NCBI GenBank assembly: GCA_015488555.1
Contig: WFNO01000122.1
Span: 12,300 to 76,299 of the forward strand
Length of the DNA: 64,000 nucleotides
Reading direction: 5' to 3'
DNA from: Gammaproteobacteria bacterium
GTDB lineage: Bacteria > Pseudomonadota > Gammaproteobacteria > SZUA-140
Below are positions 13,495 to 40,103 of the stretch, in pieces. The notes under the pieces were generated by a model. The model did no database searches. It was not told where the DNA came from and saw only the letters and a program-made list of their open reading frames with translations. The stretch's first letter is position 1, and each line of letters opens with the position of its first letter. The translations under genes were made by a program, and so were the position numbers.

Positions 13495-13497
13495 TCC

Positions 13498-16464: not shown

Positions 16465-16486
16465 CAGGCCTGGCCCATCGCTGTTC

Positions 16487-17023: not shown

Positions 17024-17035
17024 GGACGTGCCGCC

Positions 17036-18049: not shown

Positions 18050-18054
18050 GCGGT

Positions 18055-24131: not shown

Positions 24132-25000
24132 CAGATCACCCCCTTGTGGGCTGCCTCACTGTAGAAAGGCGTGCCGAAATAAGTCAAAAAAGCAAAGACG
24201 AAGATGCCGATAATGGCCAACGCTCCCACGTGTATTGGAATGCGATAGCTGAGGCGGGCATGCAAGGCCGCCCCCAGGAACAACCAGTTGAGAAAGGATG
24301 AGGTCTCCAGTGCATCCCAGGCCCAGTAGCGGCCCCAGGCGTCCTGAGCCCATACGGCACCCGCGATGAGCATCAAACTGTCGAAGATAAGCGCCAACAA
24401 CATGAAACGCCAAGCCATATGGTCCAGCACCTTGTCCGGTGGCAAGTGACGGAAGAAAGGCGCCACCCTGGGAATACGCCTCAAGAGAATGACACCGGCC
24501 AACCCCGAGCCTATCAGGCAAAAGGCCAGAAAGAATTTGCCGAACCCCACGTGCGCCCAAAGCCATTCGTTGTAGTAGGTAGGGGGATAGTGACTGTCCG
24601 AAGGCTCCAAGAGTAACACCCAGGTGCCCAGCACCCAGAGCATGGGCAACACCACCACCGCCGTAGGACGCAGCACCGGCAGACGCCAGTAGGCGACAGC
24701 ATATATCAATCCCAGGCTGAACAACTGACTGATAAGCAATTCGAAGAGGTTGACGAAGGGTCCATGACCGAGGCGTAACCAGCGCTCTGCCAGGGACGCA
24801 GTAAGCAAGATCACCCCACCGGTAAGTAGGGCCAGGACCAAGGACTCGTGGCTGCGGTTCACGGCTGCCCCAGCATCCCCCCCGCGGGTGCGAACGAGGC
24901 CGTAGAAAGCAGACAAGGTCGCCAGTGCATAGGCCACCAGTCCCGTATAGAGCCAGGGAAGTTCAGTAAAAACCGTTGCTTCGCTCATTTCGTTCATCAT
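24131..25000 (-). CDS. System II cytochrome c biogenesis protein CcsA/ResC-like (haem-handling W-rich membrane protein)
   Basis: WAQDAWGRYWAWDALE tryptophan-rich motif, flanking His residues, multi-TM. The ORF's N-terminal extension is rejected. ATG at 25000 overlaps the ResB-like stop. Confidence 0.85.
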   Translation of the reverse strand: MMNEMSEATVFTELPWLYTGLVAYALATLSAFYGLVRTRGGDAGAAVNRSHESLVLALLTGGVILLTASLAERWLRLGHGPFVNLFELLISQLFSLGLIYAVAYWRLPVLRPTAVVVLPMLWVLGTWVLLLEPSDSHYPPTYYNEWLWAHVGFGKFFLAFCLIGSGLAGVILLRRIPRVAPFFRHLPPDKVLDHMAWRFMLLALIFDSLMLIAGAVWAQDAWGRYWAWDALETSSFLNWLFLGAALHARLSYRIPIHVGALAIIGIFVFAFLTYFGTPFYSEAAHKGVI

Positions 25001-26034
25001 AGCTTGCCTCCGCCCCATGGTGCCGTTTCCAGTTCCGGTTCCGCGCCCTTGCGTGAGACTTCCCCGGCCTGGGGCCAGGGATGAGTGGCAAACTTGTTCC
25101 AGAAATAGGCCGCCAAACCCAGCACCCCAATGACGGCCGTGAGGAACAGCCACTGGAGAGTGGGGTCGTAGAACAGTTTGTACCCCATCCAACTGCTCAA
25201 GCCCTCGTAACGCAGCACGCCACCTGGTAGAGCCGTTGCCTGCCCCGGTAGCAATTCCTCTCGCTGTTCTCCACTGCGTAACACCAATATTCCGTGTGCC
25301 TTGCTTGGATCCAGGGTCCAAGCTTGATCCGCCTTGAGACCGGTCTCCAATTGCAACCAGAACTTGACCTCCTCCCCACCGGGAGGAGTCCACCGATTGG
25401 CCTGGCGAAAGTCGAACAGGGGATAGGAAGGCATGTGGATGGTGCCGGTCACCGGCTCTCCAGTTTCCGGGATCCAGGTAAGCACCGCAGCAAAACCTTT
25501 ATTGAATGTGGTATAAAAACGATAGCCCTCCAGTACTAGAGGTGTGTCGTCCCCCACCACGCGTCGTTCCCATCCACCCTGACCGTCAGGCACCAGCACG
25601 TGACTACGGGTGGGTCCGCGCATCATGCCTGGTCCATAATCCACCGTGAAAGGCCCCTGCACGAAGACCACCTTCTCCAACTCGCCACGATGCCAGGGGC
25701 CTTTGCGCACGTTCATGAGTTCGGCCGGATCGAAAGTACTGCCTTCCACCATCTCGATATGCGCCTCCATGTGGGTGAGGCGACCAATGGCAGCCAATAT
25801 CACAATTCCCAACAAGGAAAGATGAAAGATCAAGAGTCCAGGACGGCGGTTGATCCGGGCATTGCTCATCACCGCCGCCAGCAGATTGACGGCCAGCAAG
25901 GCCATGGGAGCCACCAACGCCCAGACGGGGGTATCCACGGGATTGTCGTAGCTGAGGGCGGCCCCCACGGCCAGCAGGGCCATGCCCAGCAAGGTGAAAC
26001 GGGTGGAGGAAAGGCGCCTCAACAAAGCGGTCAT
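24997..26034 (-). CDS. ResB/CcsB-like cytochrome c biogenesis protein (short form)
   Basis: ResB-like N-terminus (LRRLSSTRFTLLGMALLAVGAALS), TM His (LIFHLSLLGIVIL), a periplasmic domain and a C-terminal TM. Lies immediately upstream of the ccsA-like gene. Confidence 0.7.
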   Translation of the reverse strand: MTALLRRLSSTRFTLLGMALLAVGAALSYDNPVDTPVWALVAPMALLAVNLLAAVMSNARINRRPGLLIFHLSLLGIVILAAIGRLTHMEAHIEMVEGSTFDPAELMNVRKGPWHRGELEKVVFVQGPFTVDYGPGMMRGPTRSHVLVPDGQGGWERRVVGDDTPLVLEGYRFYTTFNKGFAAVLTWIPETGEPVTGTIHMPSYPLFDFRQANRWTPPGGEEVKFWLQLETGLKADQAWTLDPSKAHGILVLRSGEQREELLPGQATALPGGVLRYEGLSSWMGYKLFYDPTLQWLFLTAVIGVLGLAAYFWNKFATHPWPQAGEVSRKGAEPELETAPWGGGKL

Positions 26035-28715
26035 GGTGGATTCACACAGGCTTCGGAACTACCCAACATCCAGGTGGCACCATTGAAACCATTGCCGGGT
26101 GCCCCAGCCGAACCGCAATTGGCCTGGGTCCATTCCCCGCTGCGGGCGAACTTGCGCACCTTGAGCACAGCACCGTTGTAATACGGACCATTGTAATAAC
26201 GCGCAGTGGTGTGATTGCGCACTTGCCGGCTGCTGGCATCCCCTGCTCCGGCTGGTTCACCAGCGAGCAGCGGCGCTTCCAACCCCACGTCGTTGAGATT
26301 GGCCAGGAACACTTTGTTCTTCCACCCATGGGGAATGGCGATGTGACAGAAGGTACAGCTGAAATCAGTCACCCTGCCGGCATGCCCCACGTGCAGATTG
26401 ATGTTCCTAAAATCAAGGCAGCCGACATTCACTCCAATGTTGGTGCTGAACCCGCTACTCAGCACAGAGGCATCAGGAAACGAGGCATCACCACGGCCAT
26501 ATTGATCGTATTCGTGGCATTTGAAACAGAGATGATTGAACGGTCCCGGGGGACGCGCCTCACCAGTCTTGTCGTCCCAGTCGCCCTTGAGCAAGAAGTT
26601 GTGGTCAGAACCGTGTGGCCCCCAGGGGTAACCGTTCTCGTCATTGGGCACCACTGTCTCCGGCGCGGTGGATGAGCCGTGACAGTCGGTACAATACATG
26701 GTCTGAGTACCCACCGCGACATTGAAGGGCGAAAGCCAGTCATCGGCATTCGCCTTGCGCACCTGGGGCGTGCGCCCGGTGGGTTTGACCACTGGATGCC
26801 AGGAGCGGTGATTGTCCGTCACCCAGTTCACACAATTGCCGTCCTTGTCCCGATAGGCCGGTACCGTACCGCCCGTCTCCACCGTGGAATCCGGCTCATT
26901 GGGATCGATGAGCATGGTACATTCGCCCACGCTGCCAGCGAAAGCTCCCGTCGGCGTAACAGGCGTGCCTTCTCCCATGTGGTCGTCGGGCGACTGGAAT
27001 TCCATGGCCTGGTTGGTGTACTGGAAGAGGGCGTTGGTACCTGGCGGCGTACCACCCACAAAGGAACCCAGCATGGGCGGTTGATCATAGGTGTAGTTGG
27101 AATGGCACTTGAAACAGAGTTGGTACTCGCGGGTGAGATAGGGTGCGCTGACATCGGTGCTGCCGCCCGTACCGGGATCGCCGCGTTTCACCTCGAAAGT
27201 CACCGGCTCGCTGCCGAATTCGGTGGAACCGTAGACAGGCTCCACGCCCCAGATGCCCCGCAATACCCCGGAAGCCAGATTGGTATGCGGCACGCCATCT
27301 TCGTGCAGATGGGTACCGGCGGGATCGGGCACGGTACTGTCCGCGTTGAACAGGCGGTTACGCGTCACCCGATGGGGATTGTGGCAATCGGTGCACTCGA
27401 CATGGCGATTGTTGAGATTGCCCTTACCCAAGTTCTCCGGCGCCTCGATGAAATCCTGCCCCCGCCGGTCTCCTTGGGTTGCCGTGCTGCCCGTACCGAT
27501 GCTGTGCACCTCGGTACCTGCGGGCTGATCCGAGCTGGCGATTGGCATTCGCCGCGCCATGGTGGTGAAATCGGTCTTAATGTCCGGCACCTCGAAAGAG
27601 AAATTAGTACTGGGATTGACCTGCCCCTGCAGTGTGTTGCCGTCGGCGGAATGGCAGGCATAACATACTTCTTCCACCGCTGGATTGCCGCCCTGTTTAT
27701 AGCGGGCGCCGTCCGCCGTGGTGAACACGGGGCCATCGGTACCCTCTCTGAGTAAGCGCCTTGCTCCCTGAACTGTGTGGGGATCGTGGCAGTTGAGACA
27801 AGCAGCCTGCCAAACGCGCAGATCACGGGGAAATTCGCGGAGATCGGCAGCGGCATCCGTATAACGTTCGTCGGCCACGGCGGGATGGGCGTGCGCCGAC
27901 CCCACCCAGCCGTCTTTATCGTGACAGGCCAGACAAATGATGTCGTTGTCACGATCGAAACGCCCATCCACCGGCTCTTGTTTCTGGAAGCGGTTGACGC
28001 GCAGGAACTTGATGTTCTCTCCGGGCACATCGGAACGCAGGTGCGGATCATGACATGTGATACATTCCACCTTGCCATCCTCCAAAGGCAGATAATCTCC
28101 CTGCGGAGCGGCCGGCGGGCTGCCACGGGTGCGCTCGTTGATGTGGGCCACCACTGCCGGATCGAACAATTCTCCATCCCGAGCCGCCTGACTGCTGTCA
28201 TAGGTAAAAGAAATAGGATGGTCGTTGCTCAGATCCACTCCCAGGCGACGCGTAAAGCCAGTGGTTTCCCCCAACCCTTCGGGAATGGTGCCATCGGCCT
28301 TGGTGCCGGTGAAGGGAATGTTGGGATTCTCGATACGATTGAGCACGTTGACCGCGCCCAGGGCAATGGTGCCGTCATGACAGGACAGGCACAGTTTGGA
28401 TTTTCCGCCTGGCTGCCCCAGATCCGTGGCATCCAGCGATGTAGAACTGAAGGGAATATAGGTGGCGGAAGACAGCTGGCGGTTCCACAGGGGTGCCGCC
28501 TGTTCCGGTGTGGCACCGTGGGGAGTGTGGCAAAAGGCACAGATCTGGGATTCACTGCTGGCGTGGGCCTGGCGTTCAACCCCTTGAGGAACGACGGTGG
28601 CGGAGAAATTGTGCTTGGTATTGCTGATGTCGGAGATGATGTCCGCCCAGACCACCCCAGGCCACGGCAACAACATCCACACTAAGCCCACCGCCAACAC
28701 CCACGGACGCTTCAT
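26031..28715 (-). CDS. secreted undecahaem c-type cytochrome (~895 aa) with an N-terminal doubled-CXXCH module
   Basis: Eleven CxxCH motifs counted (CAFCH, CLSCH, CITCH, CLACH, CLNCH, CYACH, CTDCH, CFKCH, CTDCH, CFKCH, CTFCH). Signal peptide MKRPWVLAVGLVWMLLPWPGVVWA. The N-terminus NTKHNFS...CAFCHTPHG...PLWN...CLSCHDGT is paralogous to the start of 37730..38566. Confidence 0.88.
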   Translation of the reverse strand: MKRPWVLAVGLVWMLLPWPGVVWADIISDISNTKHNFSATVVPQGVERQAHASSESQICAFCHTPHGATPEQAAPLWNRQLSSATYIPFSSTSLDATDLGQPGGKSKLCLSCHDGTIALGAVNVLNRIENPNIPFTGTKADGTIPEGLGETTGFTRRLGVDLSNDHPISFTYDSSQAARDGELFDPAVVAHINERTRGSPPAAPQGDYLPLEDGKVECITCHDPHLRSDVPGENIKFLRVNRFQKQEPVDGRFDRDNDIICLACHDKDGWVGSAHAHPAVADERYTDAAADLREFPRDLRVWQAACLNCHDPHTVQGARRLLREGTDGPVFTTADGARYKQGGNPAVEEVCYACHSADGNTLQGQVNPSTNFSFEVPDIKTDFTTMARRMPIASSDQPAGTEVHSIGTGSTATQGDRRGQDFIEAPENLGKGNLNNRHVECTDCHNPHRVTRNRLFNADSTVPDPAGTHLHEDGVPHTNLASGVLRGIWGVEPVYGSTEFGSEPVTFEVKRGDPGTGGSTDVSAPYLTREYQLCFKCHSNYTYDQPPMLGSFVGGTPPGTNALFQYTNQAMEFQSPDDHMGEGTPVTPTGAFAGSVGECTMLIDPNEPDSTVETGGTVPAYRDKDGNCVNWVTDNHRSWHPVVKPTGRTPQVRKANADDWLSPFNVAVGTQTMYCTDCHGSSTAPETVVPNDENGYPWGPHGSDHNFLLKGDWDDKTGEARPPGPFNHLCFKCHEYDQYGRGDASFPDASVLSSGFSTNIGVNVGCLDFRNINLHVGHAGRVTDFSCTFCHIAIPHGWKNKVFLANLNDVGLEAPLLAGEPAGAGDASSRQVRNHTTARYYNGPYYNGAVLKVRKFARSGEWTQANCGSAGAPGNGFNGATWMLGSSEACVNPP

Positions 28716-29794
28716 GATTCCCCCCAGTCCCTCAAGTACTCGAATATCATCACGCGACCGTTGAAGGCATCGGCCACATAGACCCACCCGCGGTGGTCGG
28801 TCCACACACCCGCAGGCAGATAAAACTGCCCAATGCCATTACCCGTCCCGCCGATCGGCAGCAGGAACTCCCCTTTCTCATTGAATATTAACAGATGATC
28901 GTAATAGGATTCCACCACGTACAGATTGCGGTCCTGATCAACGGCCACGCCCTTGGGACGCGGCAGATCGCCAAGATAGAGCCCGCGGCGACCTACACTA
29001 CGCACGAAACGCCCCTCACGATCGAAGACTTGCACCCGGGAATTGAGAGTGTCTGTCACATAGAGTCTTCCGTCGGCGAAGGTCAAGTAAGTAGGAGCAT
29101 TGAATTCTCCCGGCCCATGTCCTCGCCGCCCCCAAGTAGCCACCAAAACACCGTCCCGGTCGAAGACCTTCACGTCGTGGGCCTTGCTGTCCGCCACGTA
29201 GATGAGTCCACTCACCGGATCGCGGGCCACGCCCACGGGACGCTGCAGAACGCCTTCCCCCATGCTGCCCTGGGGCTTGCCCTGCTCGTTCAAGATCACC
29301 ACGCGCCGCAGGTCCGCGTCTGCGACAAGTATGTATCCCGGCTCACCCGCCGTCACACCCAAAGGCGTGAGAAAATGCAAATTTGCTCCGGCCTCCTCCC
29401 AGATCTGCAGACCGTCTTTCGGATCGAAGACGTATACCGCTGCTCGGCTCACATCACTGACATAGATCCGCCCACGCGCATCGGTATACCCCCCCTGCGG
29501 GCGCTGCAGGACACGCGGGCTATGCGGTCCTGTAGCCAAGCCCACCAGCCAAGCCAATACCTTGCGACCGACAGCGGTCCGTTGGCCACGGTAATTTTCC
29601 TCGCCGGTCAATTGTCCCATGTAGCGATAGCGAGGGCGCTCAGGTGGCGGTGGCCACACCGGCGGGGCATCGTCCAGCTCATCAAATCGCAAAGCAGAAC
29701 TGGGGCCGCCGGCACACCCTCCGGCCAATATCAGGACCACCACCATGAAACCGGCAGCCACACCCCGCGTCAGAGAGGCAAGACGGCAAGACAT
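28712..29794 (-). CDS. NHL-repeat six-bladed beta-propeller lipoprotein
   Basis: Lipobox LAGGC. Repeated blades of the form G-F-x-x-P-x-G-V-A-V-D-x-x-x-x-L/I-Y-V-x-D, with an NHL/N(S)R-V-Q-V-F motif recognisable in at least one blade. ATG overlaps the upstream stop (ATGA). Confidence 0.8.
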   Translation of the reverse strand: MSCRLASLTRGVAAGFMVVVLILAGGCAGGPSSALRFDELDDAPPVWPPPPERPRYRYMGQLTGEENYRGQRTAVGRKVLAWLVGLATGPHSPRVLQRPQGGYTDARGRIYVSDVSRAAVYVFDPKDGLQIWEEAGANLHFLTPLGVTAGEPGYILVADADLRRVVILNEQGKPQGSMGEGVLQRPVGVARDPVSGLIYVADSKAHDVKVFDRDGVLVATWGRRGHGPGEFNAPTYLTFADGRLYVTDTLNSRVQVFDREGRFVRSVGRRGLYLGDLPRPKGVAVDQDRNLYVVESYYDHLLIFNEKGEFLLPIGGTGNGIGQFYLPAGVWTDHRGWVYVADAFNGRVMIFEYLRDWGES

Positions 29795-30807
29795 CACTGC
29801 ACGCGTGGCGTTTCCGCCCGTTCTAGATTTTGGCGTGTAGCCTCTAGAACCTGGATGCGACCATTCATGGCATCGGCCACGTAGAGCAGGCCACCTTCCA
29901 GCCAAAGATCGGCAACGCGCTTGAACTGTCCGGGCGCAGTTCCGGAACGTCCCACAGAAAAACGGTAATGAGTGCCCTCGAAGACCCGGATGGTGTCGGT
30001 GAGATAATCGCCGACATAGGCCCAGCCGCGGGCATCCACGACGATGGAAGTGGGAAAAATCACCGTATCCTTCTCGAAAGACGCGAGAGGACCGCCGTCA
30101 GGCGCTATCACCTGAACCCGGGATTCTCCATAACGTGTGGCCACATAATAGCCTTCCGGCCCTAGGGCGAAGGCAGTGACGCCACGAAAACGCCCCGGGC
30201 CTTCTCCGCGCTCTCCGATGGCACCGCTGAGCAACCCCGCCCGGTTGTAGACCAGCACGTCGTCGTTGAAACCATCTGCGATGTACAAGGTACTGGTGGC
30301 CTCGTCCACCACCACGGCCACCGGCCGCCCCAGGTTGATGCGGTCCTCATAGACACGAATCAGGCGGTCGTCGCGGTCGAAATACAAGACCCGGCCACCG
30401 TCGAAATCGGCTAGATAATAGGAAAGATCGGAAGCCACGTAGATATCGGACACCGTACCGCTTACCAAGCGGCGCAAATCCTGAAGGATACGCAATTCTC
30501 CGCGGTCCCGACGATAGAGCAACACCTGTTCCAGGCCTTCGTCCACGATGTACACCGCAGGCCCGCGAGCAGCTACGGCCACGGGGCGGACGAGCCGCAC
30601 ATATTCCAATCCCGTGAGCAGATTACCGCCTCGCATTCCACCATCGATCACTTCCCATACCACAGGCTGTGTGCCAAGGGCACTTCCCGCGGCATCTCCG
30701 GAAGCGGGCACGGAACCCGGCTTCATAGCGCCGCAGCCGGCGGCAAACAGGAAAGCCGCTACGGCGATCAGCGCAACAATCTCGTTTCGTTGGGAACAGA
30801 ATGACAT
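29794..30807 (-). CDS. NHL-repeat beta-propeller lipoprotein (paralog)
   Basis: Lipobox LFAAGC. Blades YIADGFNDDVLVYN and LYVADAMNGRIQVL. Start 30807 overlaps the upstream cytochrome by about 40 nt, so it is somewhat uncertain. Confidence 0.72.
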   Translation of the reverse strand: MSFCSQRNEIVALIAVAAFLFAAGCGAMKPGSVPASGDAAGSALGTQPVVWEVIDGGMRGGNLLTGLEYVRLVRPVAVAARGPAVYIVDEGLEQVLLYRRDRGELRILQDLRRLVSGTVSDIYVASDLSYYLADFDGGRVLYFDRDDRLIRVYEDRINLGRPVAVVVDEATSTLYIADGFNDDVLVYNRAGLLSGAIGERGEGPGRFRGVTAFALGPEGYYVATRYGESRVQVIAPDGGPLASFEKDTVIFPTSIVVDARGWAYVGDYLTDTIRVFEGTHYRFSVGRSGTAPGQFKRVADLWLEGGLLYVADAMNGRIQVLEATRQNLERAETPRVQ

Positions 30808-31415
30808 CGGCCGCAATTCATGGTGGGGGGAAAGGCCACGTTCCCGTGACAGACTCCGCAATACTCTCCCTGGATGATGGCAGACATGGAAACGGGATTG
30901 GCGCCCTTCTGGGGAATAAAGATGAGCGGATGGCAATTGGCACAGGTCAGCCACTCGGTGTGCTGGCGGTGCGGGAAACGCACGTGCGGCATGGAGGCGG
31001 TGTCCTTGAAAATGATATCGAAGTCCACTGGAAACATATCTCCCTCACCGTCCACGGACTTGCGGGGATCAATGAGCCCCATCTCCAGAGTCTTGACCCA
31101 GTCGATGATACCCTGGGAATCACGTGGAAAATTGGCCATGGCTTCGTAGGGTTGCTGCAACACCGCCACTGCCTCACTCGCAGGATCGTGAATGCCATCC
31201 TCAGCGATGGGCACGATGTCGCCTGTCAACTGAAAGTGCTTGCCGCGCGACCAGAACGGCTTAGCCACATCGGCCGGATTCTGCAAGAGCTGCGGGGTCT
31301 TGGCTGGCGTGGCGGCCATGGCTATCGGCCATACCGGAAGGAAAATGGCGAGACACACGGCCCACAAGAGCCTCAAACCGCCGCTCACTCGTTTTCCACT
31401 TTGGCACCCGTTCAT
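30768..31415 (-). CDS. periplasmic trihaem c-type cytochrome (family A)
   Basis: CANCH, CGVCH and CGRCH, signal peptide. Paralog of 33399..34064, sharing DGIHD...FPHRQHTEWL.C.NCHP.IFIPQKGAN...CGVCHG.VAFP. Confidence 0.8.
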   Translation of the reverse strand: MNGCQSGKRVSGGLRLLWAVCLAIFLPVWPIAMAATPAKTPQLLQNPADVAKPFWSRGKHFQLTGDIVPIAEDGIHDPASEAVAVLQQPYEAMANFPRDSQGIIDWVKTLEMGLIDPRKSVDGEGDMFPVDFDIIFKDTASMPHVRFPHRQHTEWLTCANCHPLIFIPQKGANPVSMSAIIQGEYCGVCHGNVAFPPTMNCGRCHSVPNETRLLR

Positions 31416-31548
31416 GGTTCTGCCCCCGTCTCCCGATCTCGTATCCCCATCCCGTTGCTCAATCTCGTCGCCAGATCCTTTCGCTGAACTCTTGGGTGCA
31501 GGGGGCGGGCAAACCGAAACAGAGGTTCGATACCCCCACCCGCTGGCG

Positions 31549-33279
31549 CTAGCGGACTCCCGCCAGACGCAAGGCTCGCTGAATGTGGGTCGTCGCCCCT
31601 TGCAGCATGAGTATGGCCGTCTTGTAATCCCCCTTCGCTGCGGTGGGCAAGGCCTGCGCCTTGATGCCTTTTGCCTTTTCCACGAAACGGTTCATCAACT
31701 CCACCGTCTGCGGTGAAGGACGCCGCTGTTCGATGGCCAGCGGAATCAGTTCCTCGTAACTCTCGTAACGCGCCAGCTCGTATTCGTACTCTTCCTTCGG
31801 CGTCTCAAAGACCAACTCATAAGACATAGTCTCCTCGTGGAGCATATCGGTCAAGGCATTGTTGAGGTCCTCCTGGGCCCGCGAGAGGACTTGCACGGCT
31901 TCGGCGTAATCACCCTCCTCGGCCAGGCGCCGGGCCTCGGTCTTGGCGGCCTCGATGCGTGCTACGTCCAATTGCGGAATCTCCTTGCGGTGGCGCTGCT
32001 TGCTCAGGCGCTGGTAATTGCGCTGGTAAGAGGCCTGAAAGGTCTCTACGCCTTGGAGTAATTCTTTGAAGCGCTCCTGCAAGGCAGCCTGATCACTCTC
32101 GGCAGGCACGCGCCGGGAGGCTTCGCTCATAAGACGCAGGGATTCGTCTACCAACGCCAGGGCCTGTTCGAAATGTTGCTCGTCGAAAGCCGCACGTGAG
32201 GCCTGCAGCTTGTCCCGGGCATCGCGTAGAAATCCTTGCGCCACGGTATTTCCGCTGCCCTCGATACGACGGGCAGCGCTGGATTGATTGACGAACAGCT
32301 CGGCAAAGGCCAGTTTCTGCTGCACCTGCCCTTTACTCACACGAGGACGGTCTTCAAGGGCCGGAGCGGCAGCGACAGCCGGGTGTGCAGGGGTCGCCGC
32401 CAGTTTCACCTTCACATGGTCCTCCTCTCCCTCATCGACGATGTGGATGACACCGCCCATGTTCTTGTGATTGCGACACTGGTAATACAATACGTCAGGC
32501 GCGGAAGCATCTGGCGTAAAGGTGACCACACCGTTGTAGGTGAAATTACCCTCCACCCCTTTGGAATAGGTAGCTGCCCCCCAGCCGGTCTCACTCCGAG
32601 AGAGATAGAAGTCGTGCTGGACGTTGGTGTTCACTTTGAACGTATAAGTCTTGCCGCGCACCAGGATCAGAGACTTTCCTTGCACACCATCGACGATAAA
32701 ACCATATTTGTCGCCCACCCCATAGTAGGGATGCGAGGGATCCTTCAACCCCAGCGTCACCTGAAACACAAAGGGATTGACGTCCTCCTTCTGCACCACG
32801 GGTGCTGGTTGCCGTCCAACAGGTGCCGATGCCACGTCGCGATCGGCAGCAAGGACGGATGGAGACTCCCCAGATATCGATTTTTCAGATGCTGATTCTT
32901 CCTGCTCCGCAGCCTCCGCGACAGCGGATTGTGCAGCGGCCACCTCAGGCTCGGTGGCCGCCGGCACACCCGAATCCGCCTCAGGAATCGCGCGCCCCTG
33001 TCCAAGAGGCTCGAACCGTGCAGATTCCGGGACTGGAGCAGCCTCGACCACCGGCTGGGATTCCAGAACCAACTCCCGCTCCGGCTCGGACTGTATTTGT
33101 TGCGATGCGGGAGCAGATATCGGTGCAGCCGCGGGCGCGACCGTCTCCGCAGGTGGCGCCTGGTCAACAGGCGCTGGCATCTCCTTGCGCGTAGCACAGG
33201 ACACCAGCGCCAGGCCAAGCACAAGAGCAAGTGCAGGCACGACCACGTGCAAGTCTTGGGCTGCACCCCGACTACGCAT
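31549..33279 (-). CDS. lipoprotein with Ala/Pro/Glu-rich linker, cupredoxin-like (amicyanin-type Cu site) domain and C-terminal alpha-helical domain
   Basis: Lipobox LALVSC. A disordered low-complexity region of about 150 aa. Candidate type-1 Cu ligands: H in NVQHDFY, and C, H, M in YYQCRNHKNMGGVIHIV (compare the amicyanin C-x-P-H-x-x-M motif). Coiled/helical C-terminal half. Start is 33279 or 33291. Confidence 0.6.
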   Translation of the reverse strand: MRSRGAAQDLHVVVPALALVLGLALVSCATRKEMPAPVDQAPPAETVAPAAAPISAPASQQIQSEPERELVLESQPVVEAAPVPESARFEPLGQGRAIPEADSGVPAATEPEVAAAQSAVAEAAEQEESASEKSISGESPSVLAADRDVASAPVGRQPAPVVQKEDVNPFVFQVTLGLKDPSHPYYGVGDKYGFIVDGVQGKSLILVRGKTYTFKVNTNVQHDFYLSRSETGWGAATYSKGVEGNFTYNGVVTFTPDASAPDVLYYQCRNHKNMGGVIHIVDEGEEDHVKVKLAATPAHPAVAAAPALEDRPRVSKGQVQQKLAFAELFVNQSSAARRIEGSGNTVAQGFLRDARDKLQASRAAFDEQHFEQALALVDESLRLMSEASRRVPAESDQAALQERFKELLQGVETFQASYQRNYQRLSKQRHRKEIPQLDVARIEAAKTEARRLAEEGDYAEAVQVLSRAQEDLNNALTDMLHEETMSYELVFETPKEEYEYELARYESYEELIPLAIEQRRPSPQTVELMNRFVEKAKGIKAQALPTAAKGDYKTAILMLQGATTHIQRALRLAGVR

Positions 33280-33398
33280 GATCACTCTCATTAGTATCGA
33301 ATGCTACTGCCGCAGCCCTACTGCTGTCTCAATCCATACCCACACGCCGCTCGGCCTTTTATTTTGATCAAGACAAACGATGATGTTGCTCCCCAGGT

Positions 33399-34064
33399 TT
33401 ATTTCCAAGGATTCTTCAACGTCGCCTCACTGAGTGGCGGTTGCCAATCCGCTGGCTTGGGCTTGGAGTGGCACTTCTTGCATGTCTTGGTTTCGATAGG
33501 GAAGGCCACCTTGCCATGACAAACACCACATTTCTGCCCCAGGAGAATGGCCGACATGTTGATCTGGTTGGCCCCCTTCTGGGGAATGAAGATAGCCGGA
33601 TGGCAATTGGAACAGAGCAGCCATTCCGTGTGCTGGCGATGCGGAAATACCACGTCGGGTACAGAAGCCTTGACCGGCCGTACGATGTCCAAATCCATCA
33701 CGAAAGGCTCGGCATTAGAATCGAGCAAGTCCCAGCGTGGCTTGATCAGCCCCTCATCCAGGGCCTTGACCCAATCTACGTGGTTGCCAAAACTAGTCCT
33801 GGGCAATCCCTCGTATGCCTCCAAAGGAGGCTGCAGATTGAAAGTGGCCTCGTTGGTGGTATCGTGGATACCGTCTTCCCACGGTGGCGCATTCGGGTTT
33901 TTGGGTTTCTTCAGATTGAGGTTGAAGGTGTTGGCCGCCGATACCTCTCCCATCATCAACAACCCCTGAATCGCGTTACCGGCTGCCGGTACCGAAGTAC
34001 TCCAAACGGCGGCGATCAGCAGCACAGCGCTGGAAACGATGACGAACCCGTTCTTCAAACTCAT
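33399..34064 (-). CDS. periplasmic trihaem c-type cytochrome (family A paralog)
   Basis: CSNCH, CGVCH and CKKCH. Signal peptide. GGGGAGAG RBS. Confidence 0.82.
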   Translation of the reverse strand: MSLKNGFVIVSSAVLLIAAVWSTSVPAAGNAIQGLLMMGEVSAANTFNLNLKKPKNPNAPPWEDGIHDTTNEATFNLQPPLEAYEGLPRTSFGNHVDWVKALDEGLIKPRWDLLDSNAEPFVMDLDIVRPVKASVPDVVFPHRQHTEWLLCSNCHPAIFIPQKGANQINMSAILLGQKCGVCHGKVAFPIETKTCKKCHSKPKPADWQPPLSEATLKNPWK

Positions 34065-34088
34065 GGCACTCTCCCCAATCTATCTTTC

Positions 34089-34535
34089 TTATTTGTTGTC
34101 GGCGGTCTTCTTGGCAGGCAGGGGCTTGTAGGCCGGTGCTACCAGACGTTGTAGAGTGCTGCCATGGAAATGGGTAGGGGTACCCGGAATGCCCGAATGG
34201 CACATGGCACAGTTCTCCACCGACCAGGCCACCTCACCGTTGTGGCAGGCACCACAGAACTTGCCGTCGATGATCTTGGCCATGGTGATCTGATTGCCAC
34301 CAGCCTTGAATTTAAATCCGAGATCGGCATGACACACCTTACAGCGGAAACGGATGCGATGGAACCAATGAGGGAAAACCGCTGGGCGCATACCGGCGGC
34401 ATCGGAATAGTTGTTGATGACGACGTCTCCGTACTCGGCCTTCGAAGGTTGGGCCACCCCTGCGAACAATAAGACCGCGAAGGCTCCCAAAACGAACGGT
34501 TTCCATGCCCCCCTGTGCTTGATCTTCAGTGCCAT
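34089..34535 (-). CDS. small trihaem cytochrome c (cytochrome c3/c7-like)
   Basis: CKVCH, CGACH and CAMCH within 148 aa. FPHWFH...IDGKFCGACHNG pattern. GAGGAGAGG RBS at an internal ATG. Confidence 0.82.
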   Translation of the reverse strand: MALKIKHRGAWKPFVLGAFAVLLFAGVAQPSKAEYGDVVINNYSDAAGMRPAVFPHWFHRIRFRCKVCHADLGFKFKAGGNQITMAKIIDGKFCGACHNGEVAWSVENCAMCHSGIPGTPTHFHGSTLQRLVAPAYKPLPAKKTADNK

Positions 34536-34725
34536 AGCAGATCCTCTCCTCACGCTTTGTTCTTATAGATTATGGCCTTACTCGCCACTGCAGGCGTCAT
34601 TATACCTCGAATCCCGCACGCTGCCCATGCGCAGCGGCCGCCCCCGGGTCCATGCCGCCGTGCCTGCGAACGGCCTGCCCCACGTTTCCTCCCGCCCGGC
34701 ATCACAAGCAGGATTTTACATGGGG

Positions 34726-36543
34726 TCAAAACAGGCGGTTCACCTGGAAATAGATCAGGCTGAAACTCTGGTCCTCTCCTCCTCCTCCGGTCAGATCGAA
34801 ATAGCGCCAGCTCATTCTCAACCGGGTCAAACCAATGGTGTAGTCCAGGCGGTTCTCCCATTCGAGACGATCCATGTTGCCCGACACGTCCGTGCGGGAG
34901 AGGCGCAGATCCGACAGGAAACGCAATCGCGGTACACCAAACACCGCACTGTGGGTGTAATTCAACTGCCCCGTTCCCGTTACTCTATCATTAACCCCCT
35001 GGCGGTTGAAGTCCTGGCTCACGTACTGGATGGTGAGATTACCTGTCAGATTGCTGAGCCGGTCGAGATAGCGGGTCCGCTGAATCTGGAAATTGACAAA
35101 CTGTTGATTGCCTTCCTGATCCCCGAAGGAACGGCCATCGGAGAGGGTCACTTGCAAAAAGCTGGTGGCCTCCGGGGAAGAAGCGTCCCAGGACAAACTG
35201 CCCGAATTGTCCAAGCGTTGCACCGAGGTCTCTACATCACCCATCTGTTCGTCACCGCTCACTGTCTGACTGAGGCTCAGGCGGATATTGGAACGCCGGC
35301 CGATCACCCACAGGCGCTGAATATCGTGCCCCAGTTTGAGCAGAAAGGATTGATCCTGGCGCTGTGGTGCGTCTCGCGCACTGGCCGTACCCTGGGTATA
35401 CCACTGATAGTTGAACCCAGACCAGAGAGGGCGAATGTCCGACTGATAGAGAGCGCCGGCGCGGCCCCTAGAAATGAAATCTGCACCGTCGCCGTTGTCA
35501 CTGCTGAGCACATCGACGTTGGCATCGAAACGCAGGTTGCGGGTGTACTGATAGAACATTCCACCAGTAGCGCTGAAATTGGTGAGTTCTACCTCGTTGC
35601 CCACCGTATCGGCCTGTAGCCCATAGAAGCGCACCCCTCCACTCAGGGTCAACGGCCGATCCAAGGGCCGCCAAAACACAAAGCTGGACAATTGCGTCAG
35701 ATCGGTGTCGCTGTCGGGTTGATTGGTACTATTGAGCGGCTGTTTCGATTCGTAATCGGAATTGTAGATGTTGAACATGGTATCCAGCCGCAAGGCACGG
35801 TTGGGAAAGTAGAAATGATCCACATTGAGAATGAAGGTATCGGTCTTCTGATCGATCACGGAGCGTTCGCTGCTCTGGATGCTGCTCTTGGCAATCAAGG
35901 TCTGCTTGGGCATTTTCAGATCCGCCTCCACACCGAACAGCTGGTCCCGGTAATTCTCTCCGCCCGGTTGCTGCTGCTCCCAATCGTTGCGGTCATAACG
36001 CAATTGGAAGCGGTGTCCCTTCTGAGTGTAGAAGGATTGCTTCAGCGATAGGCGACTGGTACGGAACTCGGTGCTGCCCAGGGTATTCAAGGGACTGGAG
36101 CGGGCCACCAGGTCCACCCGACTGTCGCTGGCCTGGTAGGTAAGCAGGAAAGGGGTGCGACTACGGGGCAGTATGCTCAGGTTGAGGTTACCCGTGAGGA
36201 TGGAAGACTCGTTGGAGCTACTTCCTTCGAACTCGGATTTGTCCCAAGTGAAGCGCAAACCGGTATCGGCAGTGGCCAGCCAGGGCCTGCCGAGATAACC
36301 TTTGAGATTGAGGCCCCCCTGTAACTGATTGCTGACGGTATCTTCCTGGCCGGTGTTGTCCAAGGCGCGAAAGGTATATCCGAGGTTGCCGGAAACATCG
36401 GTAAGGGCAAAGGCCCACGCGCACACGGACCAAGCCCACAGGCAGCAACCGCAAGCCAAGCGCAGCAACTCTACCCCCGCTTCCGAACCTCGAAATCGCT
36501 GACCATTGCCCCCGGCACAGACCCGCGGGCTGCTCCATCTCAT
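34726..36543 (-). CDS. large outer-membrane beta-barrel protein (~600 aa, MtrB/PioB-like size class), no haem motif
   Basis: Signal peptide ...AWAFA. Alternating amphipathic beta-strand pattern throughout. C-terminal ...YFQVNRLF with a terminal Phe, typical of OMPs. Confidence 0.7.
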   Translation of the reverse strand: MRWSSPRVCAGGNGQRFRGSEAGVELLRLACGCCLWAWSVCAWAFALTDVSGNLGYTFRALDNTGQEDTVSNQLQGGLNLKGYLGRPWLATADTGLRFTWDKSEFEGSSSNESSILTGNLNLSILPRSRTPFLLTYQASDSRVDLVARSSPLNTLGSTEFRTSRLSLKQSFYTQKGHRFQLRYDRNDWEQQQPGGENYRDQLFGVEADLKMPKQTLIAKSSIQSSERSVIDQKTDTFILNVDHFYFPNRALRLDTMFNIYNSDYESKQPLNSTNQPDSDTDLTQLSSFVFWRPLDRPLTLSGGVRFYGLQADTVGNEVELTNFSATGGMFYQYTRNLRFDANVDVLSSDNGDGADFISRGRAGALYQSDIRPLWSGFNYQWYTQGTASARDAPQRQDQSFLLKLGHDIQRLWVIGRRSNIRLSLSQTVSGDEQMGDVETSVQRLDNSGSLSWDASSPEATSFLQVTLSDGRSFGDQEGNQQFVNFQIQRTRYLDRLSNLTGNLTIQYVSQDFNRQGVNDRVTGTGQLNYTHSAVFGVPRLRFLSDLRLSRTDVSGNMDRLEWENRLDYTIGLTRLRMSWRYFDLTGGGGEDQSFSLIYFQVNRLF

Positions 36544-36558
36544 CGAATCACCTTATTG

Positions 36559-37623
36559 TTATTCGGCCCCGACTAGCAGAGCTTCATTGATCGTTATCGG
36601 TGTTTTCCTGCGCAATTCCTCCAGCAGGCTTTGCCAAGCCTGTGCCTTGCGCTCCTCACTCAGCATCAGGCGAGCCCTGGCCTCACTGCGTGCGAAATCG
36701 TTGAGTTGTGGTGGCGTGCGTGCCTCCAACCGAAACAAGGCATATCCCTGCAAGAGACGAATGGGGGCCGACACCTCTCCCGGAGCCAGCCCATCTACCA
36801 CCTCTTGAGCCTCGGTAGACAACATGCCGGCATGGACATAGCCCAGATCTCCTCCCCGAGCCGCCGACTCGTCAGAGGAATGCGCGCGTGCCAGCTCAGC
36901 GAACGAAGCCCCTTCCGCAAGTCGCGCCAATAGCTCCTCCGCCTTCTGCCGGGCCGCTTCCCATTCCTGCGGTGGCGCCCAAGGCGGTACACGCAACAGG
37001 ATCAACGACAGATGCAGGCGTTGGGGAGTGGTGAACCGTTCGGGATGGGCTTCGTAATAGGCACGCACGGCCGCCCGATCAGGCTCCGGCAAGTCTTCCA
37101 CCTCGTCTTTCAAACGCTGGATGCGACTTTGGGCTTCCAGTTCCTCCCGCAAAGCCTGCAGCAACTCTTCGCGCCGCTCCTCCCAGTGAGGCAAGCGGCG
37201 GTAACGCTCCTGTACCATTTCCAACTGCGCCTTCACCCAACCTCCGTCGGGTTCGATGCCCCGGCGTTGTGCCTCTTGCAGGAGCAGGCGTCGATCGACG
37301 AGGCGCTCGGCTACTTCGCGGCGAAAAGCCAGACGCTGGTCCTCCGGCACTTTGCCGTGATAGAAGCGCTGCCGATAGGCCGCATGCACATTGACCCGGA
37401 ATTCTTCGGCGCTGATGATCTCCTCCCCTACGGTGGCCAGAATCCCGTCGCCGTCAAGAGCGGCCTGGGGTGCGGCTCCCTCGGCGGGCACCACCCACAG
37501 CAAAGTGCCAAGCCAGCATCCGACCACCACCGACCACACCCATCGTCCGGTTCGGCCCCTCCAACGGTCCAGACGGCCCCAGGATACTCGGGCCGCCCAC
37601 GGGAGTTGCAGCCCCCCATTCAT
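36559..37623 (-). CDS. SurA/PpiD-like periplasmic chaperone with PpiC (parvulin) PPIase domain
   Basis: GGDLGYVHAGMLSTEAQEVVDGLAPGEVSAPIRLLQGYALFRLE parvulin core. Strong AGGAGG RBS at the internal ATG 37623. Confidence 0.8.
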   Translation of the reverse strand: MNGGLQLPWAARVSWGRLDRWRGRTGRWVWSVVVGCWLGTLLWVVPAEGAAPQAALDGDGILATVGEEIISAEEFRVNVHAAYRQRFYHGKVPEDQRLAFRREVAERLVDRRLLLQEAQRRGIEPDGGWVKAQLEMVQERYRRLPHWEERREELLQALREELEAQSRIQRLKDEVEDLPEPDRAAVRAYYEAHPERFTTPQRLHLSLILLRVPPWAPPQEWEAARQKAEELLARLAEGASFAELARAHSSDESAARGGDLGYVHAGMLSTEAQEVVDGLAPGEVSAPIRLLQGYALFRLEARTPPQLNDFARSEARARLMLSEERKAQAWQSLLEELRRKTPITINEALLVGAE

Positions 37624-37729
37624 GTCTGTCCTCCTCTTCGCACATCCCACCGCCCACAGCAGTCCCTTCTGCTCAGATCCGATTCAGATCCGCCCCGTAA
37701 CCGCTCCAGTATCAGTCCCGGATCTGCGC

Positions 37730-38566
37730 TCACTTGTTGTGGCAGGTCAGGCACACTGCACTACCACTGGGATCGATGCGAAGGAAAGTGGGATTGTAGT
37801 CCACGTGTGGATCGTGACAGGAGGCACATTCCACGTAGGGCTGCGGCTCACCGGCAAAAGCCCCTTTGGTCCCCACCCGGGTATAAAGTTTCATGTCAGT
37901 ACGCTCGAAGTCTGAGGTACTACCTTCTACCTGGGTGTTGACCCACCATATCCGGCGTGTGCCGACAATCTTGGTCTCGGCTGGATTGAAATCCTTGTCG
38001 CGGCCCGGTCCCTGGGGATTGGATTCGGAATAGCCCCCGCCTGCATACTGCACGCTGATGGGATGGTCATCGGTAAGATCCTTGCCCAGATTGGTGATCA
38101 CCGTCACTGGCCCGATGCGGCCGTTCACTGCGGCGGCCTGGCCACTCCACACGCCGCTGGAAAAGGCATAATTGTCTGCGCCAGAACCCGGTTCGTTGAT
38201 CATGGCATCCATGGCTTGGGTGCCATCGTGACAGGAGAGACAAGCGATGGACACCGAACCGATAGGCTCGATCTGGGCATCCAGGGTGGTACTCCCGCCC
38301 TGGTCGTAGGTCTGGAATCCCGTAGGATCCAGGTAGCGGTTCCATAGCGGCACCGCCGCCGAGGCATCTCCTCCATGGGGGGTATGGCAGAATACACAGA
38401 TCTCAGTGGTACCGCTGAAATTACTGGCGGCATTGACGCCCATGCTGCCGAGATTGTGTTTGGTGTTGGCAATCCCCGCTCGCACCTCCTGAGCAACCCC
38501 TGACAGCATGAGTGCCAAGATGAAGGCCAAGGCCGTCATCCACGTTGGCCTGGCGGCTGGCCGCAT
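37730..38566 (-). CDS. tetrahaem c-type cytochrome with doubled-CXXCH module (paralog of the N-terminus of the 11-haem protein)
   Basis: CVFCHTPHG, CLSCHDG, CASCHDPH and CLTCHNK. NTKHNLG...PLWN motif. Signal peptide MRPAARPTWMTALAFILALMLSGVAQEVRA. Confidence 0.8.
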   Translation of the reverse strand: MRPAARPTWMTALAFILALMLSGVAQEVRAGIANTKHNLGSMGVNAASNFSGTTEICVFCHTPHGGDASAAVPLWNRYLDPTGFQTYDQGGSTTLDAQIEPIGSVSIACLSCHDGTQAMDAMINEPGSGADNYAFSSGVWSGQAAAVNGRIGPVTVITNLGKDLTDDHPISVQYAGGGYSESNPQGPGRDKDFNPAETKIVGTRRIWWVNTQVEGSTSDFERTDMKLYTRVGTKGAFAGEPQPYVECASCHDPHVDYNPTFLRIDPSGSAVCLTCHNK

Positions 38567-38948
38567 CCATAGTGCTTCACCGACAAGTGAAAACGATCCG
38601 CACGACCACTGGGGCCAGAACCTTCCCGCTACCGCCGCGCTCCTCCCCATACTCACTCTGGAAACCCTCCCCGAATATCCAGTGTTGGGTGATGTCGTCC
38701 CGCACGGACAGGGCATCATTATACCCACATCAGGCTGCCGCATGAGCCATTGGTTGATCTCTCCCGACAACCCTACCGGCCGCCCATTCCCTGTCATCGT
38801 TGCAGTGAATCTAGTTATACACTCTACCACAAGCGCCGTAGCACGGAAAAACGCATCGCGCACAGGGATTTCCTTCAGCGTACCGCCAATACCATCGCAA
38901 CCATCGTGCTCCTCCTGCACGCGGGTGCTGCACGAGCGGTGCTGCGCG

Positions 38949-40103
38949 TCAGATGCCGCGCTCGAATCGGAAACGCAGGCCCAGAGACAACAGGCGCAGG
39001 TCTTCACCGGCGGCGGGCAGCAAGGGAGCGGGATCGTCGGCATCGGCCACCAGGCCGTAGGCCGCCCCTTTTTCGTTGCGCACCGCCACATAGCGGGCAT
39101 ACCAGGCCAGGCGGGGTGAGAGGGCATGATCGAAGCCCAGGGCGCCGAATACCGCGCCGCTGTCGGGCAGGCCGTCCAGGGCCTCCAGGTAGGCCCCGGC
39201 CAGGCGCCAGGTCACATTGCCCAGGACCTGATCGAGGGCCAGGTGATAGGCGCGGCGGCCCACCGTCCGGCCGCTCAGGCGGGCGCCGTTGGTGGCCTCT
39301 TCCAAGAACAGGTCCAGGCGTGTGCCCTGGCCGAAATCCCAGCCCAGGACCAGCTTGCGCGCGGCGGCATTGCGATGGTCCGCCGCGGCGAATACCGCCA
39401 GGTTGGATTCGTAGCGCTGGAGTCGCTCGTAGGCCAGGGCCAGATACAAAGGCCCCCGATCCAGGATCAAGGCGGCGCTCGAAGCCCGGCGATCCGGCCC
39501 GTAGGCAGGCGTGGCGGCCAGGAGCAGCTGGACACCCTTGAGACGCGGCGTCTCGTAGCTCACCAGATGCGGCAGGCGGTTACCGAAGACGGGCTCGCCG
39601 TTCAGATTGCCCATCACCGCGTGGATGTCCGCCCGGGTGTCGGCGAACCCATCCAGGCGGTCACCGGCGCGGCGATAGGGCGTGGCCTGGCGCCCCACCC
39701 GCAAGGTGCCCAGCCGATGGCGCAGGCCTGCATAGGCCTCGCGCCCGCTGCTCCAGCCGCCCTCATCCAGATCCAGGTAGACCTCGGCACGCCACAGCAG
39801 ATCCAGATGCTCGCGCACGCCTTCGCGCCCGCGAAAGCCCAGCCAGGACCGATTGCCGTTCACCGCCAGCGGCTCGTCCTCGTCGGGTCCGGGATAATCC
39901 CGGGTATTCAGGCCGTCCAGAGATACCAAGGCCTGGCCGTAGAGTGCCATTTCCGCAGCCCGGCCGGCCAGCGGCACGCTCAAGACACAGGCGGCCAGTA
40001 CCCATCCCAGCACCCATCCGAACAGCACCCGCCAGCCCATTCGGGGGCGTTCTCCGCCGGGCATGCGCGGGCGGAAACCGTACTCAACTCGACACCACTC
40101 CAT
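38949..40103 (-). CDS. outer-membrane porin-like beta-barrel protein
   Basis: AAGGAG RBS, signal peptide, alternating beta-pattern, ends LRFRFERGI. Family assignment (general porin versus phosphate-selective porin O/P) is uncertain. Confidence 0.55.
   Translation of the reverse strand: MEWCRVEYGFRPRMPGGERPRMGWRVLFGWVLGWVLAACVLSVPLAGRAAEMALYGQALVSLDGLNTRDYPGPDEDEPLAVNGNRSWLGFRGREGVREHLDLLWRAEVYLDLDEGGWSSGREAYAGLRHRLGTLRVGRQATPYRRAGDRLDGFADTRADIHAVMGNLNGEPVFGNRLPHLVSYETPRLKGVQLLLAATPAYGPDRRASSAALILDRGPLYLALAYERLQRYESNLAVFAAADHRNAAARKLVLGWDFGQGTRLDLFLEEATNGARLSGRTVGRRAYHLALDQVLGNVTWRLAGAYLEALDGLPDSGAVFGALGFDHALSPRLAWYARYVAVRNEKGAAYGLVADADDPAPLLPAAGEDLRLLSLGLRFRFERGI

Follow-up and report, generated by a model that had tools for sequence, protein, structure and literature searches.

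A UetF-type lipoprotein joining a predicted cupredoxin domain to a repeat-built helical module in a gammaproteobacterial uet cluster

The stretch analysed here is 64,000 nucleotides of gammaproteobacterial DNA (contig WFNO01000122.1, positions 12,300 to 76,299), referred to below as the window. The open reading frame (ORF) 31549..33291 on its minus strand encodes, from an ATG start, a protein of 580 amino acids; the NCBI call of the identical protein (P0130) starts at the second Met, four codons on, and gives 576 amino acids. An earlier note, made from the sequence alone, had read this ORF as a lipoprotein carrying a long low-complexity tether, a blue-copper site and a helical C-terminal domain. 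Judged from gene content and gene order, the ORF is an orthologue of UetF, a new member of that named family. Overlapping ORFs on the plus strand (e.g. 32236-32895 and 32777-33367) were rejected as shadow frames of sequence with 58-60% G+C, because the homologues support the minus-strand frame alone.

The window holds a complete uetABCDEFGHIJ-ccsBA module (24131..39127, minus strand; Table 1). The uet (undecahaem electron transfer) module was defined for 'Candidatus Tenderia electrophaga' and its relatives (bioRxiv 10.1101/2022.05.06.490989), where gene 6 is described as 'Cupredoxin UetF ... much larger than these proteins'. The gene order in the window is that of Figure 2A of the same work, the haem counts of 4, 3, 3, 3 and 11 included. 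The cytochrome/porin setting given in the earlier note was thus recovered, with c7-type trihaem cytochrome genes flanking the ORF and multihaem cytochromes and porin or barrel genes nearby. Genome loci encoding a homologue (80 in all) were compared; 74 of them repeat this order, with UetD/E on the upstream side of the homologue and UetG on the downstream side. These include four Ca. Tenderia sp. metagenome-assembled genome (MAG) loci (L045, L049, L063 and L076), whose homologues at this position are 45-48% identical to the window copy; the closest loci are 59-69% identical. The assignment to UetF is made because gene content and order match the published cluster and because these 74 loci share the flanks. 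The ORF occupies the position between uetE and uetG, and its product carries a predicted cupredoxin domain within a chain much larger than the single-domain cupredoxins.

The fusion had been noted earlier as not seen described; the slot was in fact named UetF in 2022, and its T. electrophaga occupant, Tel_16525, had been described before that as a TPR-domain protein with a proposed role in aligning cytochromes (PMC5371394; mSystems 2017). In that study Tel_16525 is co-transcribed with three trihaem genes, which rank among the most highly expressed on the cathode, and peptides of Tel_16525 were detected. Uet was later reported in Gallionella and Leptothrix genomes (PMC10734462, PMC13386937). 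No paper in the literature assigns a mechanism to UetF.

Table 1. Features of the uetF gene and its product and of the surrounding uet cluster (all on the minus strand; PPIase, peptidyl-prolyl isomerase; AF2, AlphaFold2; pLDDT, predicted local distance difference test).
Feature	Coordinates	Strand	Basis
Signal peptide and lipobox, residues 1-32	33196..33291	-	basic n-region, hydrophobic core, L-V-S-C with Cys32
A/P/E-rich low-complexity tether, residues 33-170 (138 aa)	32782..33195	-	composition, non-conservation
Cupredoxin-fold domain (predicted), residues ~172-288	32428..32778	-	AF2, Foldseek, invariant candidate ligands
Inter-domain linker, residues ~289-317	32341..32427	-	low pLDDT (trimmed residues 140-150), variable in alignment
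C-terminal helical module, residues ~318-580	31552..32340	-	ten helices, three ~40-aa hairpin repeats
uetA, four-haem cytochrome	37730-39127	-	Pfam, haem motif count
uetB, SurA-like PPIase	36559-37650	-	Pfam
uetC, 605-aa barrel	34726-36543	-	no Pfam match
uetD, c7-type trihaem cytochrome	34089-34553	-	Pfam, haem motif count
uetE-like c7-type trihaem cytochrome, upstream neighbour	33399-34064	-	PF14522, TIGR04257, 3 CxxCH
uetF, the ORF studied	31549-33291	-	slot between trihaem genes
uetG-like c7-type trihaem cytochrome, downstream neighbour	30768-31415	-	PF14522, TIGR04257, 3 CxxCH
uetH/I slot, NHL propeller	29794-30954	-	Pfam
uetH/I slot, NHL propeller	28712-29905	-	Pfam
uetJ, 11-haem cytochrome	26031-28805	-	haem motif count
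ccsB/ccsA (ResB/CcsA)	24131-26034	-	Pfam

The N-terminus of the protein, MRVIMRSRGAAQDLHVVVPALALVLGLALVSC, shows the three parts of a lipoprotein signal and ends at the lipobox L-V-S-C32, which follows the bacterial pattern [LVI][ASTVI][GAS]C. The lipobox recurs in 79 of 121 family members; among the entries that lack one, many are truncated gene calls and about 20 are true Sec-type periplasmic proteins without a tether. Across the family the lipidated Cys is followed by A, G, S, V or L and never by Asp. In Escherichia coli the residue after the lipidated Cys governs outer-membrane sorting (the +2 rule), and by this rule UetF-type lipoproteins are therefore predicted to be transferred to the outer membrane. 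A periplasmic rather than a surface location is tentatively favoured because the roughly 20 tether-less homologues have ordinary Sec signal peptides. The segment that follows Cys32 consists to 76% of A, P, E, S, V and Q and carries a net charge of -15 (residues 33-170). In the lipobox-bearing homologues the spacer between the Cys and the beta domain measures 65-145 amino acids (median 83) and its sequence is not conserved; composition and non-conservation together suggest that the tether is disordered. The lipoprotein with a long A/P/E-rich stretch that had been proposed for this ORF was accordingly found as described.

A model of residues 165-580 was built with AlphaFold2 (AF2) from 120 homologues (mean pLDDT 90.8). 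Its N-terminal part is an eight-stranded beta domain (residues 175-182, 196-200, 208-211, 216-221, 228-231, 253-258, 267-272 and 280-285) with pLDDT above 90, a Greek-key-type beta-sandwich of the 7-8 strands expected for the cupredoxin fold that had been proposed. A Foldseek search against the PDB returned rusticyanin as the top match (1rcy, 1gy2 and 2cak; E 7e-4, probability 1.0, target-normalized template-modelling (TM) score 0.42-0.45), followed by plastocyanins (TM ~0.5). Next came cupredoxin domains from CueO, laccases, bilirubin oxidase and copper nitrite reductase. Nearly all of the PDB matches are cupredoxins, with probabilities of 0.99-1.0, and SufI also occurs in the list. The sole Pfam model to recognize the beta domain is PF25489 ('At5g54830-like domain'), with E 0.002 and 18.5 bits versus a gathering threshold of 27; the same model also matches 31 of 39 homologues (best E 1.9e-8). 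The beta domain very probably has a cupredoxin fold with a type-1-like metal site.

Both motifs cited in the earlier note were located in the protein: NVQHDFY contributes His226, and YYQCRNHKNMGGVIHIV contributes Cys272, His275 and Met278, with His226 lying 46 residues ahead of Cys272. These four residues are the candidate type-1 copper ligands. According to the DSSP string of the model, His226 stands two residues before strand 5 (228-231), strand 7 ends with Cys272, and the loop from there to strand 8 (280-285) contains His275 and Met278; the modelled positions relative to strands 4/5, 7 and 8 are those of canonical type-1 copper ligands. The ligand pattern had been likened to those of amicyanin and pseudoazurin. 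The C-x2-H-x2-M spacing is that of amicyanin; the likeness to pseudoazurin did not hold, as its spacing is C-x2-H-x4-M (CAPHVGMGM).

Conservation was followed in three sets: an alignment of 39 sequences (39-80% identity), 120 close homologues, and 226 copies of the beta domain that include giant proteins with 2-4 tandem copies and distant multi-copy architectures. All four ligands are invariant in the 39-sequence alignment, so that the ligand set picked out from the single sequence holds across the family. Among the close homologues, C-x2-H-x2-M-G is kept in 120 of 120, as is the upstream His (HDF in 119, HDI in P0119). The Cys, the second His, the Met and the Gly that follows it are kept in 226 of 226 domain copies, and the first His in all 222 that align at its column, while positions 227, 273 and 274 vary. 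Only one Cys and one Met occur in the beta domain, and both are candidate ligands. The loop after strand 1 contains His187, which 204 of the 226 copies retain. Because the ligands are invariant across the 226 copies while neighbouring residues vary, little other than a selected metal site would readily account for the pattern.

The same pattern bears on the proposal that the domain is a metal-free, cupredoxin-like fold with a structural or adhesive role in which the ligand-like residues are coincidental. Type-1 copper is absent from many domains of cupredoxin fold, including SufI and certain EfeO Cup domains, and SufI does occur in the Foldseek list; the profile check suggested in the earlier note also went this way, since no classical Pfam or NCBIfam cupredoxin model matched and PF25489 did so only weakly. 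Coincidence would, however, have to extend over four positions that stay invariant in 226 copies down to distant architectures, with 227, 273 and 274 free to vary, and the metal-free proposal is accordingly given next to no probability.

A word-indexed search returned more than 145 homologues, every one of them unnamed or 'hypothetical'. When 1.84 billion cluster representatives were searched exhaustively with a profile, 5,333 matched at E<=1e-3, 1,792 at 1e-10 and 489 at 1e-30. The architecture of 144 new representatives was two-domain in 60, helical-only in 67 and beta-only in 17. Eight giant proteins of 845-2872 amino acids (P0183, P0185, P0195, P0201, P0211, P0214, P0231 and P0271) carry 2-4 tandem copies of the same cupredoxin subtype, each of which keeps H...C-x2-H-x2-M-G; they are partnered with SprB repeats, MopE copper-binding motifs or a DOMON domain. 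PF25489 thus appears, at the level of sequence, to be a type-1-copper-like domain family that has not been annotated as such.

Sites of the Cys/His/His/Met type are also tight binders of Cu(I), and the chemistry of the site would therefore allow a role in copper handling, that is, periplasmic sequestration or delivery of Cu(I)/Cu(II) in the manner of CopI-type cupredoxins or cbb3-assembly chaperones. The MopE-type motifs in some distant multi-copy relatives (P0183) and the existence of stand-alone homologues outside cytochrome clusters fit such a role. It is opposed by the genes around uetF, which include no copper-resistance or oxidase-assembly genes within the cluster: the gene is embedded between trihaem cytochrome genes in 74 of 80 loci and is co-transcribed with them in Tenderia (PMC5371394). 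A Met/His-rich copper-sponge segment is absent from the protein, and copper handling is left with a slight chance.

The C-terminal part of the protein had been noted as a roughly 300-residue coiled or helical domain of obscure function. A ten-helix C-terminal domain of about 260 residues was indeed predicted; it is a repeat-built module that also occurs as free-standing proteins and not a coiled coil of unknown ancestry. An AF2 model of residues 312-580 alone has pLDDT 91.3 and a predicted TM score (pTM) of 0.47; the high pLDDT together with the low pTM suggests that the helices form loosely packed sub-bundles. Profile-profile self-comparison showed three hairpins of about 40 residues that follow roughly the pattern A-x2-L-x3-G-D-Y-x2-A-x3-L-x2-A-x6-AL; with hhalign, repeats 2 and 3 match each other with a probability of 92% (E 7e-7), and repeat 1 matches either of them with 56-60%. 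Marginal Pfam matches of the helical part to YfdX and TPR models are put down to these hairpin repeats. In a Foldseek search of the module alone against the PDB no match reached an E value below 0.1, and the hits listed comprised designed bundles, the heads of vinculin and catenin, and folds of that sort. Conservation in the module peaks at the acidic signature FETPKEEYEYELARYESYEELIPLAIEQ (residues 495-522), which contains the invariant Glu/Tyr-rich segment with E501, Y502, E505 and E513. Neither His nor Cys is conserved anywhere in the helical part.

This segment is one argument for iron handling of the EfeO kind, in which the cupredoxin would oxidize Fe(II) and the acidic helical domain (EEYEYE...YEE, ExxE-like) would bind the resulting Fe(III), making the protein a periplasmic ferroxidase or iron trap of iron-oxidizing bacteria. 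EfeO (7wgu_B) is among the Foldseek matches of the two-domain model (E 2e-3), and homologues are present in iron-oxidizing Gallionellaceae. The alignment to EfeO is poor, however (root-mean-square deviation 27.9 A, TM 0.16-0.18). A search with just the helical domain brought up no EfeO, imelysin or M75 structure at E up to 10, the Pfam M75/imelysin model gives no match, the helical part has no conserved His or Cys, and the neighbours are electron-transfer haem proteins and not EfeU/EfeB-type transport components. An EfeO-like architecture, raised by the one Foldseek match, was rejected since the helical domain on its own has no M75/imelysin match, and iron handling is granted a small probability.

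The genomic neighbourhood of nine helical-only proteins was looked up. In four loci (L082, L085, L090 and L091) a Sec-type helical-only protein of about 300 amino acids sits between c7 trihaem genes, in the UetF slot of a Uet-like cluster, and is followed directly by a diverged paralogue (E 1e-35 to 1e-40 against the helical hidden Markov model, HMM). Tandem helical-only pairs occur at L082 6001-7921, L085 494-2348, L090 8001-9822, L091 1556-3392 and L083 4482-6711. The cluster of L090 reads NHL propeller, four-haem cytochrome, PPIase, 638-aa barrel, c7 gene, five-haem protein, helical pair, two c7 genes, two NHL propellers, 11-haem cytochrome and ResB/CcsA. In L090 (6688-8004) and L091 (246-1559) the UetE equivalent has five CxxCH motifs and is made up of two class-I cytochrome c domains and a c7 trihaem domain. 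Helical-only proteins at L083, L087 and L088 (lipoprotein-tethered) and at L089 (Sec-type) lie outside cytochrome clusters, and the contig of the ninth (L086) is too short for context. A six-frame HMM search of the window found no second helical or cupredoxin paralogue.

Because helical-only proteins fill the UetF slot in clusters that lack a cupredoxin, the helical module is, as far as gene order can tell, what the slot always contains, the cupredoxin having been added in the Tenderiales-type lineage. The class-I cytochrome c domains adjoining the slot where the cupredoxin is missing fit the cupredoxin being a swappable high-potential carrier, on the strength of two clusters only (L090 and L091). 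The pairing of helical-only paralogues may be a hint of a heterodimer; in the window only one, fused copy is present. The helical family numbers hundreds to thousands of members; no Pfam model is dedicated to it, and none of its relatives has a solved structure. It may be an uncharacterized, widespread family of periplasmic scaffolds that orders trihaem c7 cytochromes into a trans-periplasmic wire, with a modular carrier that is either the copper domain or class-I cytochrome c on UetE; this idea is put forward tentatively and is open to considerable doubt. If it is true, Uet would be the first conduit of the porin-cytochrome kind in which copper and haem can stand in for each other at the exit port.

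From the same observations it can be argued that the helical module is the functional core, a periplasmic scaffold or spacer by which trihaem cytochromes and NHL propellers are lined up as a bridge. On this view the cupredoxin is a dispensable accessory and perhaps a regulatory or redox-sensing copper site, and electrons need not pass through it. Helical-only proteins in otherwise complete Uet-like clusters (L082 and L090), their number among the 144 new representatives (67 versus 60 two-domain), the position of the most conserved stretch outside the copper site in the helical module and the cytochrome-aligning role already proposed for Tel_16525 (PMC5371394) all favour this. No part of the protein is, however, conserved more strictly than the four copper ligands, which speaks for selection on a redox or metal function, and in two cupredoxin-less clusters the additional cytochrome c domains beside the slot suggest that a redox function needed replacing. 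The scaffold reading overlaps with the preferred explanation set out next and differs from it solely in which domain is essential; it is regarded as unlikely, yet as a serious contender.

The explanation preferred here is that UetF is a tethered periplasmic cupredoxin electron relay of Uet, docked to the trihaem cytochromes; as a whole it is considered reasonably probable. After Sec export and lipidation at Cys32 the protein would be anchored in the inner leaflet of the outer membrane, as the +2 rule implies, and the acidic Pro/Ala-rich tether of ~138 residues would let the folded part range through the periplasm. The cupredoxin would hold a type-1 copper at His226, Cys272, His275 and Met278, with a short loop of the amicyanin type. 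The three-repeat helical module would dock to the co-transcribed trihaem c7 cytochromes UetD/E/G or to the NHL propellers, a step proposed because of the strict gene neighbourhood with trihaem cytochromes. The copper centre would then act as a high-potential one-electron relay, fed by the haem chain through the UetC/UetA/UetJ outer-membrane conduit, and would pass electrons on to inner-membrane acceptors such as cbb3 oxidase, bc1 or alternative complex III (ACIII). By analogy, it would resemble rusticyanin between Cyc2 and the oxidase and bc1 branches in Acidithiobacillus ferrooxidans. Uet itself has been proposed for extracellular electron uptake in Tenderiales-like Gammaproteobacteria and in some Gallionellaceae.

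Several points weigh against the relay. The cupredoxin assignment is based on a predicted structure, with modest Foldseek E values (1e-3 to 1e-2) and TM scores (0.42-0.5). The classical cupredoxin models (Pfam Copper-bind and Cupredoxin_1; NCBIfam) gave no match at E up to 1, and profile searches of PDB sequences with the whole protein and with the beta domain alone found no significant cupredoxin (best pseudoazurin, E 0.4); the other matches in these profile searches were discarded as spurious tag matches (ENLYFQSGSH). The pTM of the two-domain model is 0.49, so that the arrangement of one domain relative to the other is uncertain. The six remaining loci of the 80 (L018, L021, L023, L033, L067 and L079) belong to Gallionellaceae, Nitrosomonadales and related MAGs; their copies have a plain Sec signal and no tether and lie away from Uet genes on the fetched contigs, and the two that were inspected (L018 9908-11200 and L021 7187-8596) have unrelated neighbours (amine oxidase, EAL protein, Ser/Thr kinase and ornithine decarboxylase). 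Because of these copies in unrelated neighbourhoods UetF is not strictly tied to Uet. In L082 both the cupredoxin and the extra cytochrome c domains are missing, and the exchange of cupredoxin for cytochrome c holds in two of the three clusters in which the upstream gene is visible. The Uet pathway is itself a bioinformatic and omics proposal (bioRxiv 10.1101/2022.05.06.490989), and the published record holds no metal content, spectrum, redox potential or genetics for any member of the UetF family.

Other features of the window were recorded alongside. Immediately upstream of uetA is a Porin_4-family gene (38949-40103, minus strand) that is absent from the published uet cluster. When uetA is taken as its longest ORF (465 aa) the two genes overlap; this call probably overstates the length of uetA, because UetA equivalents elsewhere measure only 273-291 aa. 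A scan for promoters and terminators around uetE-F-G gave no signal exceeding shuffled expectation. The System II ccsBA pair (24131-26034, minus strand) follows directly after uetJ, and a System I cytochrome c maturation set (CcmA, B, C, F, H and a CycH/CcmI-like TPR protein; 6926-14130, minus strand) lies separately, both systems falling within 20 kb; since ccsBA adjoins uetJ and System I stands apart, this suggests a dedicated maturation route for the Uet cytochromes. An NrfD-like membrane subunit, a 4Fe-4S dicluster protein and a molybdopterin-binding-domain protein are encoded together at 60421-63958 (minus strand). Together they resemble alternative complex III or a Psr-type quinone-interacting complex and may be an inner-membrane partner for imported electrons. 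Beyond the uet module are a TPR protein and Bat-like genes (DUF58, VWA plus TPR, and BatD; 15547-21647, plus strand, opposite to uet); the Bat-like stretch has a G+C fraction of 0.65-0.73, markedly higher (0.72-0.73 versus ~0.60) than that of the remaining window sequence. Encoded at the window's left end are a HAMP-PAS-GGDEF-EAL protein and two Reg_prop (two-component regulator propeller) proteins (336-2897 and 3134-5807, both minus strand), which may be regulators of a biofilm or electron-uptake lifestyle.

Uet is among very few candidate routes by which neutrophilic bacteria could take electrons from cathodes or Fe(II) minerals. If UetF does carry a type-1 copper site on its long lipid-anchored tether, this would suggest a copper-dependent step in an otherwise all-haem conduit, and a domain of ~120 residues that is easily expressed would be the target for a first redox-potential measurement in the pathway. 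The stand-alone helical pairs in cupredoxin-less clusters shift the focus to the module as the likely organizer of the periplasmic trihaem cytochromes.

Comparison with known systems places the protein between several families. YfdX (PF10938), an enterobacterial periplasmic helical stress protein, shows a weak likeness to the hairpin repeats and is, like the module, all-helical and periplasmic. Against PF10938 the window protein reaches 12.2 bits (E 0.19), short of the gathering score of 26.6, whereas seven of 39 homologues are matched with E down to 1.6e-5 and one helical-only relative (P0220) just passes the gathering score. The YfdX chain 6uxt is matched at E 5 in the PDB profile search and is not among the fold matches of the module. 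We know of no link between YfdX and cytochromes. EfeO (7wgu) is likewise periplasmic, with an N-terminal cupredoxin fold and a C-terminal all-helical domain (M75/imelysin), but it stands in a different gene context, has neither lipid anchor nor tether, and its M75 domain is not matched by the helical domain of the window protein. Distant members of PF25489 keep H...C-x2-H-x2-M-G in all copies, as does the window protein; the architectures of other members differ (2-4 tandem copies with SprB, MopE or DOMON), and the name of the model carries no cupredoxin or copper annotation.

Amicyanin, from Paracoccus denitrificans and other methylotrophs, binds copper through His53, Cys92, His95 and Met98 and has the shortest known loop, Cys-x2-His-x2-Met. 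The window protein shares this spacing, and the first His lies ~40-46 residues upstream in both. In the PDB-sequence profile searches amicyanin showed no detectable sequence relationship to the window beta domain; it is a single domain that partners methylamine dehydrogenase with cytochrome c551i. Rusticyanin, the periplasmic type-1 copper protein of A. ferrooxidans, links the outer-membrane Cyc2 to inner-membrane acceptors in electron uptake from extracellular donors. It is the best structural match to the beta domain, at ~15% sequence identity. Its loop is C-x4-H-x4-M where the window protein has C-x2-H-x2-M, and it is a soluble single domain from an acidophile, without lipid anchor, tether or helical module. 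The analogy with a rusticyanin-type shuttle drawn in the earlier note is nonetheless reasonable, given the cytochrome/porin cluster and the rank of rusticyanin as top structural match.

The nearest described relative is UetF of Ca. Tenderia electrophaga (ALP54627.1, Tel_16525), which occupies the same slot between uetE and uetG in an otherwise identical uetA-J/ccsBA cluster and is also described as a cupredoxin protein exceeding single-domain size; the window copy comes from a different gammaproteobacterial metagenome lineage. The published description of the T. electrophaga protein includes no analysis of ligands, lipobox, tether or helical part. The additions made here are modest: explicit candidate ligands and their loop type, the lipoprotein tether and its distribution, a probable link to PF25489-type domains, and the helical module as what seems to be an independent family that fills the UetF slot alone in other clusters.

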